From sequence record ON062054.1: a stretch of 49,175 nucleotides of DNA, one strand, 5' to 3'. This document shows positions 3,574-45,654 of this stretch, piece after piece. This DNA comes from Escherichia phage P818. How positions within the stretch are numbered: position 1 is the first letter of the stretch; every line of letters begins with the position of its first letter. The notes beneath the pieces are model-generated. The model saw only the letters and a program-made list of their open reading frames with translations, searched no databases and was not told where the DNA came from. The translations under genes were made by a program, and so were the position numbers.

Positions 3574-3579
<6 letters not shown>
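2911..3579 (+). CDS. Hypothetical protein (possible regulatory or DNA-binding)
   Basis: 222 aa ORF with RBS; coiled-coil-rich C-terminal half; no confident family assignment. Confidence 0.5.
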
Positions 3580-3891
<312 letters not shown>

Positions 3892-26818: not shown

Positions 26819-26874
26819 CTTTCTTTCCTCTCGTTTGGTATGAGCTAACTATAACAAAACCCGCCGGGGCGGGT

Positions 26875-26894
26875 TTAGCAATTCGTGCTATTTA
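26875..26894 (-). promoter_or_regulatory. Dyad motif copy 5
   Basis: Minus-sense TAA-ATAGCACGAATTGCTAAA, then terminator-like hairpin CCCGCCCCGGCGGG plus T-run in the 22-bp spacer, then TATAGT. Confidence 0.6.
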
Positions 26895-27509
26895 CCATGG
26901 AATATCATCGGCCCATTCGTCAATCTGAGGCCGCAGGCCGCAGGAAATAGCCACCGCCAAAACACCACCTTCAACATCACCATTTACCAGATGCACATCA
27001 TGCTCGTTATATTTCTTGTAATCAGGAAAATGAGATTCCTTGATGCGGATGTAATTACGGCTATCGCCTGCGAAGGTCTTGCCATCCATAAATAGGCGCA
27101 CAACTGTAACGTCGTGACCATCTTCCACTAGCTGAATAACCTCATCAGGGAAACCGCCATCAGTGCAAACAAAGCTAAATCCATCGTCACACAGTCGGAT
27201 ATGTTCACTCATCAGCTTACCGAACTGCTGATTGCCAAAGAGTGGCTTAACTACCGTCTCGCTAATCCAGATCATGAACTCACGGCAGGTCTTGCCACCG
27301 AGAAAGTCATGAGGCATCTCTTTCTGATCGCGGTCGTCGTATGCAGTGATGAACTTTGAGAAAGCTCTTGCACCAAGGATGGATGCTGCAATCTCAAACA
27401 TCGGACGCTTGAAGCTGGTCGGGATGCAATTGTAATCTGCTGCCAGTGCATTGCCGATCGTGTCTTTACCTACGCCAGCAGGGCCGTTGAGAATGATAAT
27501 CTTTGACAT
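26892..27509 (-). CDS. P-loop kinase (polynucleotide or nucleotide kinase-like)
   Basis: 205 aa from MSKIIILNGPAGVGKDT (Walker A) with AGGAAT RBS; C-terminus ends ADDIPW. Confidence 0.55.
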   Translation of the reverse strand: MSKIIILNGPAGVGKDTIGNALAADYNCIPTSFKRPMFEIAASILGARAFSKFITAYDDRDQKEMPHDFLGGKTCREFMIWISETVVKPLFGNQQFGKLMSEHIRLCDDGFSFVCTDGGFPDEVIQLVEDGHDVTVVRLFMDGKTFAGDSRNYIRIKESHFPDYKKYNEHDVHLVNGDVEGGVLAVAISCGLRPQIDEWADDIPW

Positions 27510-27558
27510 TTTGATATTCCTGAGTAGTGGGCGCAATGTGCGCCCGTTAAGTTTAGTT

Positions 27559-28176
27559 TTATTTACCGCTTACGAGATTGCATTTTTTGCACTGGCGAAC
27601 ACCAAACGGAGGTAGCGGATCGCTAAATTCGTGCTCGCAAACTTTCTCTACGCCGTGAGACTTAAGGCCGGAGTGCACGTTGTCGCCATAGTCACACACC
27701 TGATAGGTTGTGATGCCCAGGCTTCGGAAGTGCGCAATAACATTCGGACTATCATCCCACGCTGCGGTGATGCGGTGCAATCCAATGTATCGTAAAAACT
27801 CTTCCTTGATGATCGTATCCTTGCGGTTATCATCAGCATGGCGCATGACCAGAACGTTATATTTAGCGCCAGCATCATACAGCCATTGCGTTGATTCCTC
27901 AACAACAGCATCAGATCGACCAGTGAGTACGATGATGAAAGCGCCGGAAGCGAATAGGCTATTCATTACGTCAATCGTTTCCTGGAATGGCTGATCGAAC
28001 TTGCTCAACGAGTTAAATTCAAGCCATGACTCAGTGAGGTGCAAATCCTTGGTCGGCAGCTTATGCAGGCGGTGAGTCCCGTCCGACAGAGTACCATCGA
28101 AATCAAATATGTAAACTTTCTTGTTTACCGCTTCCGTTTGAAGGTGATGCTTAATCATGGTGTAAAGCTGATTCAT
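27559..28176 (-). CDS. HAD-superfamily phosphatase
   Basis: 205 aa; DxDGT motif (FDFDGTL) near the N-terminus; C-terminal Cys/His cluster. Confidence 0.65.
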   Translation of the reverse strand: MNQLYTMIKHHLQTEAVNKKVYIFDFDGTLSDGTHRLHKLPTKDLHLTESWLEFNSLSKFDQPFQETIDVMNSLFASGAFIIVLTGRSDAVVEESTQWLYDAGAKYNVLVMRHADDNRKDTIIKEEFLRYIGLHRITAAWDDSPNVIAHFRSLGITTYQVCDYGDNVHSGLKSHGVEKVCEHEFSDPLPPFGVRQCKKCNLVSGK

Positions 28177-28232
28177 TTTAACTTCCTTTCGTGTAGTTGA
28201 TGTGGGGATTATACCAGTCAGGATGAATCCCC

Positions 28233-28253
28233 TTTTAATAAATCGTGCTATTT
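28233..28253 (-). promoter_or_regulatory. Dyad motif copy 6
   Basis: Minus-sense AAATAGCACGATTTATTAAAA overlapping stop; 23 bp then TATAAT. Confidence 0.55.
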
Positions 28254-30272: not shown

Positions 30273-30292
30273 GTTTAGCAATTCGTGCTATT
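30273..30292 (-). promoter_or_regulatory. Dyad motif copy 9
   Basis: Minus-sense AATAGCACGAATTGCTAAAC overlapping stop; 22 bp then TATGAT then TACCCTATCAACAACGAAG box. Confidence 0.6.
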
Positions 30293-30512
30293 GCGAACGA
30301 TTGCGAACGATTTCGAATTTAGCCATTATGACGCCAAGGCTTTTTATCATAAGAGCTTCACCTATCGTCTTCACTATGTACTCATTGCCATCAACCTTGA
30401 TGTAGTATGAGCCATTAAAACAAGGTATTGGCTTAGCCACGTATATCCCGCCATTTACAACTGAAAGGTTGTGGTGATTTGCTTGCCTTACATACACACA
30501 TTTTATAAGCAT
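30288..30512 (-). CDS. Hypothetical small protein
   Basis: 74 aa; 1-nt overlap with upstream gene; 3' end contains a tandem 10-bp duplication. Confidence 0.5.
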   Translation of the reverse strand: MLIKCVYVRQANHHNLSVVNGGIYVAKPIPCFNGSYYIKVDGNEYIVKTIGEALMIKSLGVIMAKFEIVRNRSQ

Positions 30513-31078
30513 TAATATTCACCGTTCAGGAGAGATTTCGCTTTCCGGTAGAACTGGATGGCCTTCTCCACCTCATCGGCATCATAGCCATGAATCATGT
30601 CTGAGCTTGCCTGCAATTTGCTATGAGATTTGCGCTCAACCGATCTCCATGAGTCGCACCACTTGTGAATGTCTCTCCCATACATGCCCACCAGGTATGG
30701 GTGTGCATATATCTTGTCACCAATAAGGCAAATGATTCCCGCGTCCTGTAGTGATGGTAGGATATTGTCAATCAGGTTATTCATTACTCCATTACGCTCG
30801 ACGAACGGCTGGACCTTTCTGATCGCCTCATATGTTGAGCGAACTCCCACAACGCCTTTTCCATTTATCGTTTGCTTCCAGATCTTTTCAACCACGACGC
30901 ATTGTTCACGACTTAGGTTTGCGCGACGCATAACTTCCACTTCGCACCAGTACTTTTGTGACTGTCGGTATCCGTTAGCATTGATTGCTACTCGTAGTGG
31001 TGGAAGCCCATCTTCCGTAGCAATCTTCATAATCTGCTCATCTGTCAGCTTCTCTTCGTTAAAATCAAACATCCCCAT
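30512..31078 (-). CDS. Internally deleted paralog of the 34720-36303 replication ATPase
   Basis: 188 aa; N-terminus and a later block nearly identical in protein to the 527-aa protein; central Walker A/B region absent. Confidence 0.6.
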   Translation of the reverse strand: MGMFDFNEEKLTDEQIMKIATEDGLPPLRVAINANGYRQSQKYWCEVEVMRRANLSREQCVVVEKIWKQTINGKGVVGVRSTYEAIRKVQPFVERNGVMNNLIDNILPSLQDAGIICLIGDKIYAHPYLVGMYGRDIHKWCDSWRSVERKSHSKLQASSDMIHGYDADEVEKAIQFYRKAKSLLNGEY

Positions 31079-32300: not shown

Positions 32301-32735
32301 ATGAAGATGAAGAACGGCGTAATTTACAAGCACAGTGACGGAACTACTCGGTTCGTCACGACCTCAGGCCGGATGTATATTTGGGCTTACGGAGCCTGGC
32401 GGTTCAAGGTACAGATGCATGAGGCGACGTATAATATGTTCCTCCGCGCTGCACGACTCAAAGATAACAAGGTGTTCGTTGCGAAGAGTCGCAAGGTATT
32501 CATGGATAATCGCGTCGCGTTCGATCCTATTGACTACCAGGCGGTTGAGTTCACTGGTCTAAGGTTGAGTAAAATTCGGTTGTTGCGCAGCGAACAGATT
32601 GCAATGATTCAGCAAAATTCGGCTATTGCGCACGCCACGGAAGCACGACATCGCCTCCTGACTGGTTATCAGCCCATCATCACGCCGACGCCGTTTTACG
32701 TGCATAAGCAACGACCACCGAAAATCCATAAATAG
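32301..32735 (+). CDS. Hypothetical early protein
   Basis: 144 aa; start refined to ATG after AAGGAG RBS. Confidence 0.55.
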   Translation: MKMKNGVIYKHSDGTTRFVTTSGRMYIWAYGAWRFKVQMHEATYNMFLRAARLKDNKVFVAKSRKVFMDNRVAFDPIDYQAVEFTGLRLSKIRLLRSEQIAMIQQNSAIAHATEARHRLLTGYQPIITPTPFYVHKQRPPKIHK

Positions 32736-32749
32736 CACTAATTGCTAAA
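32730..32749 (+). promoter_or_regulatory. Dyad motif copy 11
   Basis: AAATAGCACTAATTGCTAAA overlapping stop TAG; hairpin in spacer; CATAAT; CATCGAAACGAAG box. Confidence 0.6.
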
Positions 32750-33663: not shown

Positions 33664-34229
33664 ATAGAAAAAGAAGTCCAGACGGAAAATTTTCTGGTGA
33701 TCCGCTACTACCTGGAGGTTTTCATAATTGCAACTCATGCGGAATTAAAAAGGAGGCTGACGATAAAAACTTTAGAACAATAAATAAAGGAAAAACATGC
33801 GAGAGCCTAAGCAAAACTTGCAGAAAATGCGAGTATCAAAAAGGAAAGGATAAACACGCAAGGAACATGAAAAACCCTGAATTTGCAGATGCTAGAAGGG
33901 AAAGGTGCAGGAACTGGAGGAGCAACAACAGAAGTAAGGTGGCGCTTAAAAATTATCAAGCAATAGATAAAAAGAAAGGACTTACATGCACCATGACAAT
34001 TGATGATGTTGAGGAGTTGCAGTCAATGCCATGCTACTATTGCGGAGATACGGATCGGGTTGGTGCTGACAGGATTGACAACTCACTTGCTCACACGCGC
34101 AAAAACTGCCTTCCATGTTGCCCTGATTGTAATATCTGTAGGAGTAACACTTTTTCAGTTGATGAGATGATGGTGATAGGCAAAGCGATAAGACTCGTAA
34201 AGAAATCAAGAAATAGCACGAATTGCTAA
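33660..34229 (+). CDS. HNH-type endonuclease / zinc-finger protein
   Basis: 189 aa; multiple CxxC pairs and RIDNSLAHTRKNCLPCCPDCN motif. Confidence 0.6.
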   Translation: MNRKRSPDGKFSGDPLLPGGFHNCNSCGIKKEADDKNFRTINKGKTCESLSKTCRKCEYQKGKDKHARNMKNPEFADARRERCRNWRSNNRSKVALKNYQAIDKKKGLTCTMTIDDVEELQSMPCYYCGDTDRVGADRIDNSLAHTRKNCLPCCPDCNICRSNTFSVDEMMVIGKAIRLVKKSRNSTNC

Positions 34230-34719: not shown

Positions 34720-36303
34720 ATGTTTGATTTCAACGAAGATAAATTGTCAATCGATCAGGTAATGGCTGTAGCCGCTGCCGACAACCTGCCGCCTTTGCGC
34801 GTTGCCATTAATGCGAATGGGTACAGGCAGAGCCAGTCGTTCTGGAAAGCTCCAACAGAAATCGACTCGGGCGGTGACAAATATCCGGTTATCTCACTTG
34901 GTAACGATTATGATGTCGTTGGCAAGCTGTCAAGCAATGCCGCCCGCTCTGTCCAGTTCCCTGAGTCGTCAGCATACATGCATTTCCTCGGATGCATATC
35001 AGCCGCCATGCTGGGCCGCTTTACGGTTGAGTATCACGGAACACAACAGCCGACCGCTCTGTATGTCGTAACCAGTCAGCCACCATCGACAGGTAAATCA
35101 GCCATCAACTCACTTTCGCTGGCCCCGATGATCGCAGAGACTGAACGACTCAACGAGATCCGAAAGCGCGACCGCAAGAAGATTATGGCTAAGCTTTCCG
35201 CTCTATCCAAGGAGATGAAGCAGGAGAAATCACCATCTGACATGGCGGCGCTGTTTGAGGAAAAAGAAGAACTGGAAGAAAAACTGGAACGCCTTTGTGA
35301 CATCGTATTCCCCGTATCCGACACCACGCCGGAAGGTCTTGCGCGAATCAACAACCGCCAGGGCAACTTTGCAGTAATCTCGGATGAAGCAACGAGCGTG
35401 AACTCACTGTTAGGCATGACCTATGGTGACGGCTCAAAGAAAACGAACAGCGAGCTTGTGCTTAAGGCTTGGGATGCTGGTAACGTATCTATCGCCCGTG
35501 CGAACGCAGACAATAACATGAGCTTCATTGCGATGGGCTGCATATCTGTAATTGCACAGGATGAAACAATAAACGCGATCATGAATGCTGGTGCGCGTGG
35601 TATCGGTGTGTCAGAACGTTTCTTGCTTGTGCGTGAGAAGTCATTCCTTGGCGAGCGTGTATTCGTTGACGAAAAAGGCGAATCAACATACGAGCCGATT
35701 GATGGCGGACTCAAGGCGGACTACTTCCGTCTGGTCCATGAGATCATGAGCGAACACGAAGTCAATCTGACAGTGAGCACATCGGCGATGAAATATCTCA
35801 ACCGTGCGCGTCAGGATATGGAACCTCACCTTGCGGACGGCGGGAAGTATTCACACACAATGCTTCGCGGCGCGCTGGGTAAGTTCGATAAGCAGGCCAT
35901 CAGGATCGCAGCTGTTCTTCACACTGTGCGTAACTGGTTTAATCCCAATGGCGGGAGTCCGCAGAAGTCCAGAGAGATTGAGCTTGACACAATGCAGGAA
36001 GCGGTAATTATGTTCCAGGAACTGAGTAAGACTTATCTGTCATCTGCAAACGCTGCTGGTCATGCTGGCGACCATGCGGAGATGAATAAGCTGATCGATA
36101 TTCTGATCAAGCAAGGTAAGAACGGGAAAGGCGTTGTAGGTGTACGATCCCTATATGAAGCGGCTCGCAAGGTTAAACCCTTTGAAGGGCAAAGTGGTGT
36201 AATGACTCGCATCAAAGATCACCTGATCCCTATGCTTGATGAGAAGAACTATACGTGCCTGATTGGTGATAAAATTTACATTAATCCGCGACTGCTGGGG
36301 TAA
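34720..36303 (+). CDS. P-loop NTPase, putative replication initiation/helicase-loader-type protein
   Basis: 527 aa; Walker A PSTGKS and Walker B VISDEA; N- and C-terminal blocks shared with the 30512-31078 paralog. Confidence 0.6.
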   Translation: MFDFNEDKLSIDQVMAVAAADNLPPLRVAINANGYRQSQSFWKAPTEIDSGGDKYPVISLGNDYDVVGKLSSNAARSVQFPESSAYMHFLGCISAAMLGRFTVEYHGTQQPTALYVVTSQPPSTGKSAINSLSLAPMIAETERLNEIRKRDRKKIMAKLSALSKEMKQEKSPSDMAALFEEKEELEEKLERLCDIVFPVSDTTPEGLARINNRQGNFAVISDEATSVNSLLGMTYGDGSKKTNSELVLKAWDAGNVSIARANADNNMSFIAMGCISVIAQDETINAIMNAGARGIGVSERFLLVREKSFLGERVFVDEKGESTYEPIDGGLKADYFRLVHEIMSEHEVNLTVSTSAMKYLNRARQDMEPHLADGGKYSHTMLRGALGKFDKQAIRIAAVLHTVRNWFNPNGGSPQKSREIELDTMQEAVIMFQELSKTYLSSANAAGHAGDHAEMNKLIDILIKQGKNGKGVVGVRSLYEAARKVKPFEGQSGVMTRIKDHLIPMLDEKNYTCLIGDKIYINPRLLG

Positions 36304-38267: not shown

Positions 38268-38289
38268 GTTTTAACAAAAAGTGCTATTT
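38268..38289 (-). promoter_or_regulatory. Dyad motif copy 13
   Basis: Minus-sense TAA-ATAGCACTTTTTGTTAAAAC; hairpin AGCGCC...GGCGCT in 22-bp spacer; TATATT. Confidence 0.6.
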
Positions 38290-39418
38290 ACATACCAGGG
38301 CGATAAATGTGTCGACCAACCTCTCCGAACTCCTTGTGGTAAACAATTGCAGCCGCTTGGCGGTATGATCGCCACCCTCCGCGAGCGGCATATGCATCCT
38401 TGCTAGCCAGCGCTGGGTGAACCTCGTCAATCCCAAGAGTGCACTCTGTAACAGTTGCATGATGGAAATGGCCGGAGTGGCAGTAAACAAACTCACATTC
38501 ACCAAAGTCTTTGCGGTAGTCGGTCGCCATTGCTGCGAGTCGACCCTCAGCTTTCTTCATCGTGTGACCGTGCGTGTAACCAAGTAGTGTTGAACCAAAT
38601 CTTGTTTTGTGCATGATTGCCGGACTGGTATCAACAAACACTCGACTCTCGTCTTCATAAAATGCAGCCATTGCCGCGCGAAGCCAAATCATACCACTTT
38701 GGTCATGATTTCCCTCTATAATCTGAATCTCGACATTTTTATGCTTTTTAAGCATCTTCTCTACTGCACCACGAATTGAGCGAATCGCAACATAAACTAA
38801 CTTAGCATATCGGCTATCCTGATCAAGGCAGTGTCCGCTTGCTGGAGTTACCGCCTCCAACCCATCAGAGTGGAGGAAGTCTCCACCAACTAAAATCACG
38901 GCTTTCTCTGAGGCTGGTGATACAGAGATTGCGTGGTCAAAATATGACCCCATTAATTTCTCTGCCGTTTTAGTGTCATAATTCTCACCAGATTCATGGC
39001 GATGTGCCATCATGCCGATATGGATATCGAAAATAGGGTAAAGAGTCATTAATTCAGACTTGACCTCATTGCCTGAGTGGATTACCACATCTGCCTTCGG
39101 CAACTCCGAACAAAAAGCCTCACGCGCCTGTTCCATCAGAACCTCAAGGCGCTCATTATCAATTGAGGTCTTAACCCACCGGATCTTCTCGTTACCTTCC
39201 GCATCAATCATGGTTGACGTGCCTTTTACAGCGAATCCATCAGGAACATATTTAGCAACAGCTTTGTTACCGTGTCCGTGACCTTTCTTGGCCAGGTTGC
39301 TTGAGCGTTGCTCAACAGTTCTAATGTTCATCCCATATTCCTGGGCGATCTGACGCAGTGTTTTACCAGCTTCGCGCTCGGCAATGAATTGTTCGTCGCT
39401 AATTTTCTTAATTGACAT
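38288..39418 (-). CDS. Metallophosphoesterase (protein phosphatase-like) with N-terminal HTH
   Basis: 376 aa; N-terminal sigma-70-region-4-like HTH; calcineurin-like motifs GDFLHSDG, GNHD, GHTHGH, GHFH. Confidence 0.7.
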   Translation of the reverse strand: MSIKKISDEQFIAEREAGKTLRQIAQEYGMNIRTVEQRSSNLAKKGHGHGNKAVAKYVPDGFAVKGTSTMIDAEGNEKIRWVKTSIDNERLEVLMEQAREAFCSELPKADVVIHSGNEVKSELMTLYPIFDIHIGMMAHRHESGENYDTKTAEKLMGSYFDHAISVSPASEKAVILVGGDFLHSDGLEAVTPASGHCLDQDSRYAKLVYVAIRSIRGAVEKMLKKHKNVEIQIIEGNHDQSGMIWLRAAMAAFYEDESRVFVDTSPAIMHKTRFGSTLLGYTHGHTMKKAEGRLAAMATDYRKDFGECEFVYCHSGHFHHATVTECTLGIDEVHPALASKDAYAARGGWRSYRQAAAIVYHKEFGEVGRHIYRPGM

Positions 39419-39421
39419 CTT

Positions 39422-39907
39422 TTATTCTCCGTGATTCTTGTGAAATTTAAATTTTCTTTGAAATTGCATTCTACACAATTTAGCTTCCTCTATCGAGCCA
39501 AAGTAACCAAGGTGCATTAACTTTCCATCTACCTTTATCCTGGCGACATACTTTGATAGAGGTTTATGCCATGAAACACCAGTAACTCCGGTTGAGTTGT
39601 CAGATCGCATAGACTGGTTTCTTCCATTCTCCGTCCTTGTAACAAGTCTCAAATTCGATATGTTATTGTTGCTCCTGTCATGGTCTATGTGGTCTATCTC
39701 CATCCCTTCAGGTATATCTCCGTTATGGAGATACCAAACGACAATATGAACCCTGTAATTTTTTTTGTTAAACATCATTTGCCAGTATCCAGTTACTTTA
39801 CTGACGCAACCGCACTTACTGCCAACTTTTATCTTCTTGCTTTTTGATCTCTTCCAGACCAAATGAAGATCATCATCATACTCAACAAAATCAATAAGCT
39901 CTTTCAC
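39422..39907 (-). CDS. HNH endonuclease with AP2-like domain (copy 2)
   Basis: 161 aa; EIDHIDHDRSNNNISNLRLVTRTENGRN motif; paralog of copies 1 and 3. Confidence 0.8.
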   Translation of the reverse strand: MKELIDFVEYDDDLHLVWKRSKSKKIKVGSKCGCVSKVTGYWQMMFNKKNYRVHIVVWYLHNGDIPEGMEIDHIDHDRSNNNISNLRLVTRTENGRNQSMRSDNSTGVTGVSWHKPLSKYVARIKVDGKLMHLGYFGSIEEAKLCRMQFQRKFKFHKNHGE

Positions 39908-40757: not shown

Positions 40758-40777
40758 GTTTAGCAATTCGTGCTATT
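40758..40777 (-). promoter_or_regulatory. Dyad motif copy 14
   Basis: Minus-sense TAA-TAGCACGAATTGCTAAAC; hairpin CCCGCCACCGCGCGGG in 22-bp spacer; TATACT. Confidence 0.6.
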
Positions 40778-42071: not shown

Positions 42072-42092
42072 CTTTAGCAATTAGTGCTATTT
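42072..42092 (-). promoter_or_regulatory. Dyad motif copy 15
   Basis: Minus-sense AAATAGCACTAATTGCTAAAG overlapping stop; 22 bp then TATTAT in hairpin; CACCTCATCGAAACGAAG box. Confidence 0.6.
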
Positions 42093-45105: not shown

Positions 45106-45654
45106 CTATCTATCTCCGTCACACCCAAACTCACCATGATAATAATTACTGGCTTTTAAGTACGCTTCACGCGCCGACTCCTTTGTGGTATGCCTTCCTA
45201 GCCATATTTTTTTATTATTAACCCATATCCACGCCGTGTACTTCCCTGTTTGCTTGCAGAATCCAACGCCTTTTACTCCTGATGTATTGTGAGATGGTTT
45301 TTTCATATTTCTATTGTTCTCAGATGATGACGCTTCCCTTAGGTTTTCTATCCTATTGTCAGTCCTGATCCCGTTTTTATGATCTATATACTTAGAAGGC
45401 CATTCACCTTTACAAAGCGCCCATGAAACCCTATGGCATTTAACGTCGAATCCGAAAAATCTGAAAACCTTATAACCAGATTTATGGACCGTTCCGGCCT
45501 CATCTCCAGATTTAACCCTATTAGATGTGCTTTTTACCCAAATTATAACTCCGTTGTCGTATTTAAGGTAATTCCTAAGCATATCAATACTAATCAATGA
45601 CTCTTTTGCCTTCATTAAATCAAAGTCTTTGCTCATTTCATTTTCCTCATTCAT
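45106..45654 (-). CDS. HNH endonuclease with AP2-like domain (copy 3)
   Basis: 182 aa; YIDHKNGIRTDNRIENLREASSSENNRN motif. Confidence 0.8.
   Translation of the reverse strand: MNEENEMSKDFDLMKAKESLISIDMLRNYLKYDNGVIIWVKSTSNRVKSGDEAGTVHKSGYKVFRFFGFDVKCHRVSWALCKGEWPSKYIDHKNGIRTDNRIENLREASSSENNRNMKKPSHNTSGVKGVGFCKQTGKYTAWIWVNNKKIWLGRHTTKESAREAYLKASNYYHGEFGCDGDR

Follow-up and report, generated by a model that had tools for sequence, protein, structure and literature searches.

The gene pair considered here, which encodes a HAD phosphatase and a P-loop kinase, is already known, its members being annotated as "polynucleotide kinase" and "dNMP kinase" in many T1-like genomes. The biochemistry of a homologue of the kinase and its role as an immune trigger are likewise published, as is the co-occurrence of Dmp-type phosphatases with deoxynucleoside monophosphate kinases (DNKs). 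This homologue, R1DNK, is the product of gp58 of the T1-like phage Rao1; it phosphorylates dAMP, dGMP and dCMP efficiently, and dTMP too, in vitro, and it sets off the Kongming (KomABC) defence (bioRxiv 10.1101/2024.12.20.629578). Its K15A version no longer triggers Kongming toxicity, from which the authors infer that enzymatic activity is required, and when phages were put in competition, Rao1 deleted for dnk showed no evident loss of fitness (bioRxiv 10.1101/2024.12.20.629578); the latter result implies that any role of the kinase in nucleotide supply may be minor. Rao1 is sensitive to Kongming, dAMP rises in the course of its infection, and T5 Dmp has to be supplied in trans for rescue; Dmp itself, a tested 5'-dNMPase whose D22 was mutated in the same study, blocks Kongming via removal of dAMP and is reported to have homologues that are often accompanied by DNKs (bioRxiv 10.1101/2024.12.20.629578). 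A relative of the phosphatase is T4 Pnkp, for which the roles of the catalytic residues D165, D167, S211, K258 and D278 have been described, and which hydrolyses the mononucleotide 3'-dTMP too (PMC3592404).

The window analysed here, a stretch of 49,175 nucleotides from Escherichia phage P818 (ON062054.1), covers nearly the whole genome of a T1-like siphovirus (Drexlerviridae). The 3-kb stretch around the gene pair is matched by 94 phage records, the best of them being vB_EcoM-p111 (Nouzillyvirus) at 92.8% identity. An earlier reading made from the letters alone (the sequence-only reading) had described a HAD ORF and a P-loop kinase ORF at 26892-28176, and both are present there on the minus strand. 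The HAD phosphatase gene (27559-28176) encodes 205 aa from an ATG start preceded by GGAAG, and the kinase gene (26892-27509) encodes 205 aa from the ATG at 27509. A mechanical call places the start of the kinase ORF at an upstream TTG (26892-27536); translation almost certainly begins at the ATG instead, since homologues are 204-206 aa long and begin with MSK or MAK. The same two genes occur in the same order in Rao1, where gp57, a HAD protein labelled "polynucleotide kinase" and 73% identical to that of P818, lies directly upstream of gp58. The Rao1 pair is located between metallophosphoesterase and holin genes, whereas that of P818 belongs to the block of early genes, upstream of those for terminase; further differences are an additional Cys/His tail in the P818 HAD protein (residues 180-200, at its C terminus) and the divergence of the last ~50 residues of the two kinases. 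The Kongming preprint (bioRxiv 10.1101/2024.12.20.629578) makes no mention of gp57.

The signals around the P818 pair suggest that it is expressed as a unit. Upstream of the HAD gene is a promoter-like element (28208-28252, minus strand), in which the motif AATAGCACGATTT (with the dyad TAGCA-N5-TATTA) is separated by 22 nt from TGGTATAAT; this conserved element occurs in eight copies in the genome, a motif count of 8 against 0.16 expected. Following the kinase gene, a predicted intrinsic terminator on the same strand (26857-26876; AAACCCGCC-CCGG-CGGGTTT and then a T-run) closes the two-gene unit. Thus, with a predicted promoter before the HAD gene and a terminator after the kinase gene, the two look like one promoter-to-terminator transcription unit. 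The 49-nt spacer between the genes contains a GC-rich hairpin, GGGCGC-ACATT-GCGCCC (27529-27545, minus strand), which is without a T-run on the coding strand and was flagged by the terminator scan on the opposite strand only; this predicted structure could act in transcription attenuation or in mRNA stabilisation. Another copy of the promoter-like element starts directly after the stop codon of the kinase gene, and the terminator sits within the spacer of this next element.

The family matches of both proteins are far beyond chance. The Walker A motif of the kinase, GPAGVGKDT (G9-P-A-G-V-G-K15-D-T17), has the GxxGxGKDT form typical of the phage dNMP kinases, a large family, with 3663 cluster representatives recovered by an exhaustive profile search and 1443 phage records by tblastn; across 40 diverse members G14, K15 and D16 are invariant, and T17 is conserved in at least 90%. 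A PHROG scan assigns the protein to phrog_139, "deoxynucleoside monophosphate kinase" (E 1.4e-44), and it is 50% identical to Rao1 gp58 (R1DNK) over residues 1-154, the catalytic K15 included (E 4e-53). T5 Dnk is found in phrog_139 as well (E 1.4e-51) and is matched by the kinase-family profile with 96% probability in hhalign; this link to T5 rests on profile methods, as tblastn with R1DNK reaches T5 dnk at E = 10 only. No model in Pfam or NCBIfam captures the kinase beyond its P-loop, and the NCBIfam search yielded nothing useful for the HAD protein either. Sequence searches of the PDB with the kinase, whether as a single sequence or as a profile, returned P-loop noise only, and a fold search was needed; the fold matched is the two-domain one of T4 gp1, in which a P-loop core is combined with a helical NMP-binding domain.

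The comparison with T4 gp1 (PDB 1dek) supports the same assignment. The kinase profile aligns with T4 gp1 over 73 columns at 88% probability, whereas its match to T4 Pnk is confined to 25 P-loop columns. Relative to T4 gp1 and the Pseudomonas putida PP_1964 dNMPK, the P818 kinase is shorter by ~36 residues in the helical domain, with 16% identity. When the published substrate-site residues of T4 gp1 (PMC10653934) are mapped by full-length hhalign and manual alignment, a mapping of low confidence throughout, R60, R76, M79, D117, E123 and D149 of the kinase correspond to R68, R132, M135, D175, E181 and D204 of T4 gp1 (a manual placement backed in part by hhalign). Counting against the assignment, in the same low-confidence and partly manual alignment the phosphate-binding R177 of T4 gp1 is replaced by G119, and K37 is unmatched by position, the invariant K34 of the family lying three residues earlier. 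A further point against it is that the clade of the window's kinase has a Met where most of the family, R1DNK included, has an Arg (RLHRxG to RLFMDG). Since the 50%-identical R1DNK has been established biochemically as a dNMP kinase, the P818 protein is very probably an ATP-dependent dNMP kinase that would convert 5'-dNMPs to dNDPs.

The HAD protein contains the DxDGT motif as F24-D25-F26-D27-G28-T29 and matches the Pfam family PF25109 (HAD_PNKP) with E 7.4e-18 and 65.5 bits (gathering threshold 27.6) over profile positions 2-139 of 143. Its only significant sequence matches in the PDB are Pnkp1 (4xrp) and T4 Pnk (5uj0, 1ltq); it is 27% identical to T4 Pnk in BLASTP (E 2e-12), a profile of 22 of its homologues aligns with T4 Pnk residues 157-297 at 97% probability (hhalign), and in structure it is a close relative of the phosphatase domains of T4 Pnkp and Pnkp1. 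The DxDxT acylphosphatase domain of T4-type Pnk, with its nucleophile Asp, acid-base Asp, Ser/Thr and Lys, and Mg-binding Asp, is present in the protein. Its catalytic set comprises D25, D27, T85, R87, K124 and D141/D142, of which D25, D27, T85, K124 and D141/D142 are invariant across the HAD family and align with T4 D165, D167, S211, K258 and D277/D278. T4 Pnk R176 has no confident equivalent, being placed by hhalign two residues off the invariant R36 of the HAD family. Homology identifies the protein as a DxDxT phosphomonoesterase of the Pnk-phosphatase/T5-Dmp family, predicted to be catalytically intact. A PHROG scan places it in phrog_415 (E 1.3e-63), the family that also holds T5 Dmp, itself a DxDGT HAD protein (IWDLDGT; E 3.6e-57 over its full length). 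The protein thereby groups with Pnk-type and T5-Dmp-type nucleotide phosphatases and not with the sugar-phosphatases that the sequence-only reading had offered as the alternative. The membership of Dmp, together with the homology to T4 Pnk, indicates that the family includes both 3'- and 5'-specific nucleotide phosphatases, and the substrate of the HAD protein is not fixed by sequence alone.

That reading had interpreted the two genes as a split polynucleotide kinase/phosphatase of the kind that repairs tRNA. In its full form, phosphate groups (3' or 2',3'-cyclic) would be removed by the HAD protein, the 5'-OH ends of broken tRNA or DNA would be phosphorylated by the P-loop protein, and a host ligase would seal the product. 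The phosphatase half of the idea is sound at the level of homology: the HAD_PNKP match, the alignment with T4 Pnk and the invariant catalytic residues all bear it out, as do the structural closeness to the T4 Pnkp and Pnkp1 domains and the full catalytic set. The genes are, moreover, linked and sometimes fused, in the order phosphatase then kinase, and mammalian PNKP has its domains in this same order. The kinase half fails, however. The likeness of the Walker-A protein to the kinase domain of T4 Pnk extends to the P-loop only, its fold and motifs are those of dNMP kinases, and its 50%-identical homologue R1DNK is a proven dNMP kinase; by this identity and by its placement in phrog_139 it clusters with the dNMP kinases, the very grouping that had been named as speaking against a polynucleotide activity. 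Compared with T4 Pnkp (PseT; 1ltq, 5uj0) and Capnocytophaga Pnkp1 (4xrp), the P818 pair is without a Pnk-type kinase domain and without a partner ligase, and the fused relatives of the pair have the reverse of the T4 Pnkp domain order.

The sequence-only reading had also remarked on the lack of a recognised RNA ligase, and this holds: PHROG scans of those non-structural ORFs of the window that reach 100 aa turned up neither an RNA nor a DNA ligase, and none is listed in the fully annotated relative JulesPiccard. A 376-aa protein of a size like that of T4 Rnl1 was considered as an RNA ligase and rejected, for it is a metallophosphoesterase-type "DNA repair exonuclease" (phrog_704). ARAGORN found no tRNA genes in the window. 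Given that the scanned ORFs and JulesPiccard offer no ligase and the window no tRNA gene, the genome cannot provide a complete healing-and-sealing pathway of the T4 kind. As for sealing by the host, E. coli RtcB joins 3'-phosphate or 2',3'-cyclic-phosphate ends directly to 5'-OH ends, so a 3'-phosphatase would oppose host-mediated RNA sealing. Taken together, we regard a split Pnk as highly improbable, and the fallback that the same reading had offered, a role in nucleotide metabolism, as the better one. A paper on the retron Eco2 was set aside as a source on polynucleotide kinase in Drexlerviridae, since the T4 PNK in it is a reagent only.

The association of the two genes was examined in the 80 viral contigs or loci closest to the kinase, a phylogenetically non-independent sample. 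In 66 of these 80 loci the kinase gene is preceded on its own strand by that of a HAD homologue, which abuts it in 31 and is separated from it by 0.6-2 kb of other genes in 35; order and strand are identical in all 66 loci that have both genes. The remaining 14 kinase loci have no HAD gene in the available flank, which in one of them (L066) amounts to only ~470 bp of upstream sequence. The same adjacency is seen in annotated Klebsiella Drexlerviridae and, outside this family, in K1G-like phages and in the Aeromonas phages Ahp1 and Tola. Fused HAD-DNK polypeptides also exist: P0261 (403 aa) and P0268 (461 aa) both have HAD_PNKP at the N terminus and the kinase at the C terminus, and, although they are <50% identical to each other, a conserved linker is common to both. 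P0261 occurs on three contigs, two of which are 50-200 kb in length; two of its locations, which come from two samples, lie in phage context. It could be argued that the adjacency has no functional meaning, the two being independent early genes that have become chance neighbours in a mosaic genome, and the 14 loci with no HAD gene in the available flank, the 35 with intervening genes and the ~21-kb distance between dmp and dnk in T5 are in keeping with this. Yet such an origin is difficult to reconcile with the uniform order and strand in 66 of 66 loci, the recurrence in K1G, Ahp1 and Tola, and two fusions so divergent that nonetheless retain a conserved linker, and we consider it very improbable.

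We favor, with a probability of roughly 65%, the proposal that the pair is a single transcription unit acting on the infected cell's deoxynucleotide pool and not in the healing of nucleic-acid ends. The host chromosome is broken down by T1 and TLS, which recycle the nucleotides (PMC11447400). In such a setting the kinase would convert 5'-dNMPs to dNDPs at the expense of ATP, and the host NDK would complete the route from dNDP to dNTP (bioRxiv 10.1101/2024.12.20.629578). The HAD phosphatase would act on the same pool, either stripping 3'-phosphates from mono- and oligo-deoxynucleotides or dephosphorylating unwanted dNMPs, and would in this way make the material reaching the kinase usable. That its putative substrates are deoxynucleotides or products of DNA breakdown, and not the ends of tRNA under repair, is itself probable.

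Within this reading of the pair as acting on deoxynucleotides, the specificity of the phosphatase can be proposed more tentatively. The somewhat better candidate, falling short of an even chance, is a 3'-specific enzyme. P818 HAD is closer to T4 Pnk than to T5 Dmp in sequence and structure, and this closeness to Pnk-type 3'-phosphatases favors the removal of 3'-phosphates. So does our inference that a broad 5'-dNMPase tied to a dNMP kinase would be futile, as do the sensitivity of Rao1, which has an orthologue of the HAD protein, to Kongming, and the rise of dAMP in Rao1 infection with its need for T5 Dmp in trans. A Dmp-like 5'-dNMPase, perhaps of narrow specificity, is less likely; it nevertheless stays a serious rival because of the shared phrog_415 and the reported co-occurrence of Dmp with DNKs. 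The P818 HAD protein and Dmp share an N-terminal region and, following motif I, an insertion with an HR motif and a conserved Asp (D61), which in P818 comprises 16 residues and is absent in T4 Pnk. Beyond the first ~80 residues the similarity is weak, as hhalign aligns 81 N-terminal columns (76%, E 2e-5) and BLASTP only 37 residues. In T5, unlike in P818, dmp and dnk are ~21 kb apart, dmp being in the first-step-transfer DNA, which enters the cell first. T5 is not known to reuse the breakdown products of host DNA, whereas T1-like phages reuse them.

These relationships raise the alternative of counter-defence, in which the HAD protein would, as a 5'-dNMP phosphatase of broad range, deplete dAMP or modified dNMPs and so starve Kongming-type sensing, with its dITP signal, of the output of the phage DNK. 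Dmp, which blocks Kongming by just such a removal of dAMP, lies in the same phrog_415 with the same N-terminal region and HR motif, and is of a type often reported alongside DNKs; a further host system senses m6-dAMP from chromosome degradation (PUA-Cal-HAD preprint). The behavior of Rao1 argues against it, since this phage, with its 73%-identical gp57, is still Kongming-sensitive, shows rising dAMP and needs T5 Dmp in trans. Moreover, a broad 5'-dNMPase co-transcribed with or fused to a dNMP kinase would, we infer, trap a nucleotide-reusing phage in a futile cycle, and the similarity to Dmp fades after the first ~80 residues. On balance counter-defence appears unlikely, and we return to the preference for a phosphatase working with the kinase on the deoxynucleotide pool. 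The PUA-Cal-HAD preprint is silent on the HAD-DNK pair.

A more speculative version of the pool-directed reading, to which we also give a low probability, is that the HAD-DNK cassette, often with a metallophosphoesterase (MPE) and including its fused form, constitutes a coupled pathway with undescribed chemistry, in which the specificity of the HAD protein is unlike that of both T4 Pnkp and T5 Dmp. In one form of it, 3'-phosphorylated or 3',5'-bisphosphorylated deoxynucleotides from the breakdown of host DNA would be converted to dNDPs. In another, a "sanitising" phosphatase would clear modified or non-canonical dNMPs, such as dIMP and m6-dAMP, from the salvage stream; if this were so, the phosphatase would shape what dNMP-sensing immune systems detect. 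More generally, the substrate of the HAD protein and its tight linkage or fusion to a dNMP kinase are relevant to the way in which T1-like phages put host DNA to new use and to their visibility to nucleotide-sensing defences such as Kongming. As a discovery the locus has little weight, given that the pair is annotated, the kinase homologue is characterised and the co-occurrence is published. It serves to correct an annotation: calling the HAD gene a "polynucleotide kinase" misleads, because its product has a phosphatase domain only, and the P-loop gene beside it does not supply the kinase half that a Pnk would need.

The MPE mentioned above is a further candidate component of this system. In P818 it is the 376-aa MPE-like "DNA repair exonuclease" (38288-39418, minus strand; phrog_704, E 3.9e-150), which is non-contiguous with the HAD-DNK pair, lying 10 kb from it in the window. 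The contiguous order MPE-HAD-DNK is found in 27 of the 80 viral loci, as well as in Rao1 gp56-57-58. Since its gene abuts HAD-DNK in many relatives, the MPE is likely to be a functional partner of the pair and, where adjacent, as it frequently is, may supply the products of DNA breakdown on which the other two would act. The KanT1 paper had already pointed out that the gene for this exonuclease is often followed by those for PNK and dNMP kinase, with an enhanced nucleotide supply as the proposed effect (PMC13164509). A T7-like locus (L073) with the order metallophosphoesterase-DNK-DNA ligase was considered as support for end healing and rejected, its MPE being not detectably related to that of Drexlerviridae; in T7-like early regions a ligase and a nucleotide kinase are ordinary neighbours. 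A homologue of the P818 MPE, 44% identical, is encoded directly after the fused HAD-DNK gene in the locus L085.

The phosphatase and dNMP kinase genes of the HAD-DNK unit are flanked, one on either side, by copies of a repeated element that contains the 13-nt motif AATAGCACGAWTT. A motif count recovered eight copies of this motif in the window against an expectation of 0.16, with three on the plus strand (3575-3587, 32731-32743, and 34212-34224) and five on the minus strand (26880-26892, 28240-28252, 30280-30292, 40765-40777, and 42079-42091). All eight sit at gene ends and point the way that the surrounding genes are transcribed. Alignment of the copies places the motif within an element of about 75 nt, which comprises, in order, a dyad (TAGCA-N5-TGCTA), a stretch of 22 nt, a TATAAT-like hexamer, and CATCGAAACGAA. 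At 26892 and 34212 at least, the 22-nt stretch contains a GC hairpin resembling a terminator for the gene before it. These elements look like a promoter family that has terminators embedded in its spacers and is governed by a dimeric DNA-binding regulator.

A 376-aa metallophosphoesterase-like protein ("DNA repair exonuclease" in PHROGs) is encoded at 38288-39418 on the minus strand; among the 80 viral loci closest to the window kinase, 27 have such a gene in synteny with HAD-DNK. Its counterparts include gp56 of the T1-like phage Rao1 (L084:3192-4325) and a protein of the viral contig L085 (L085:9340-10500), where a gene of this type adjoins one coding for a fused HAD-DNK protein. A Pfam search with the 376-aa protein returned no match; it combines an N-terminal HTH-like segment with the metallophosphoesterase motifs DxH, GD, GNHD, GH, and GHxH. 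This protein may be the host-DNA-degrading nuclease of T1-like phages.

The kinase clade of the window displays the signature V-R-L-F-M-D-G in the region of residues 138-141 (27087-27098), whereas the majority of family members, among them the characterised Rao1 kinase R1DNK, have V-R-L-H-R-x-G. In a low-confidence hhalign alignment, the lost arginine aligns with R197 of T4 gp1, which contacts the ATP base. At L073:4735-7523, in a T7-like contig some 44 kb long, a member of the family lies between an ATP-dependent DNA ligase and a calcineurin-like phosphoesterase not detectably related to the 376-aa Drexlerviridae protein; no HAD gene was found in this neighborhood.

The window HAD ends in a C-x-H...C-x2-C tail (residues 180-205; 27559-27639), whose sequence looks like a small zinc knuckle, and over which the AlphaFold model is of low confidence. 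Among 22 aligned homologues, about half possess this tail. The versions from Rtp, Rao1, and Klebsiella phages lack it, and P0166 and P0177 have it doubled.

Reciprocal matches to phrog_7327 and phrog_2373 reveal a domain common to a 188-aa ORF (30512-31078, minus strand) and the C-terminal part of a 527-aa helicase (34720-36303, plus strand); the ORF seems to be a helicase C-terminal domain duplicated as a gene of its own. The replication region also contains, as insertions, a pair of paralogous HNH endonuclease genes (39422-39907 and 45106-45654, both minus strand and phrog_99), whose products are probably homing endonucleases.
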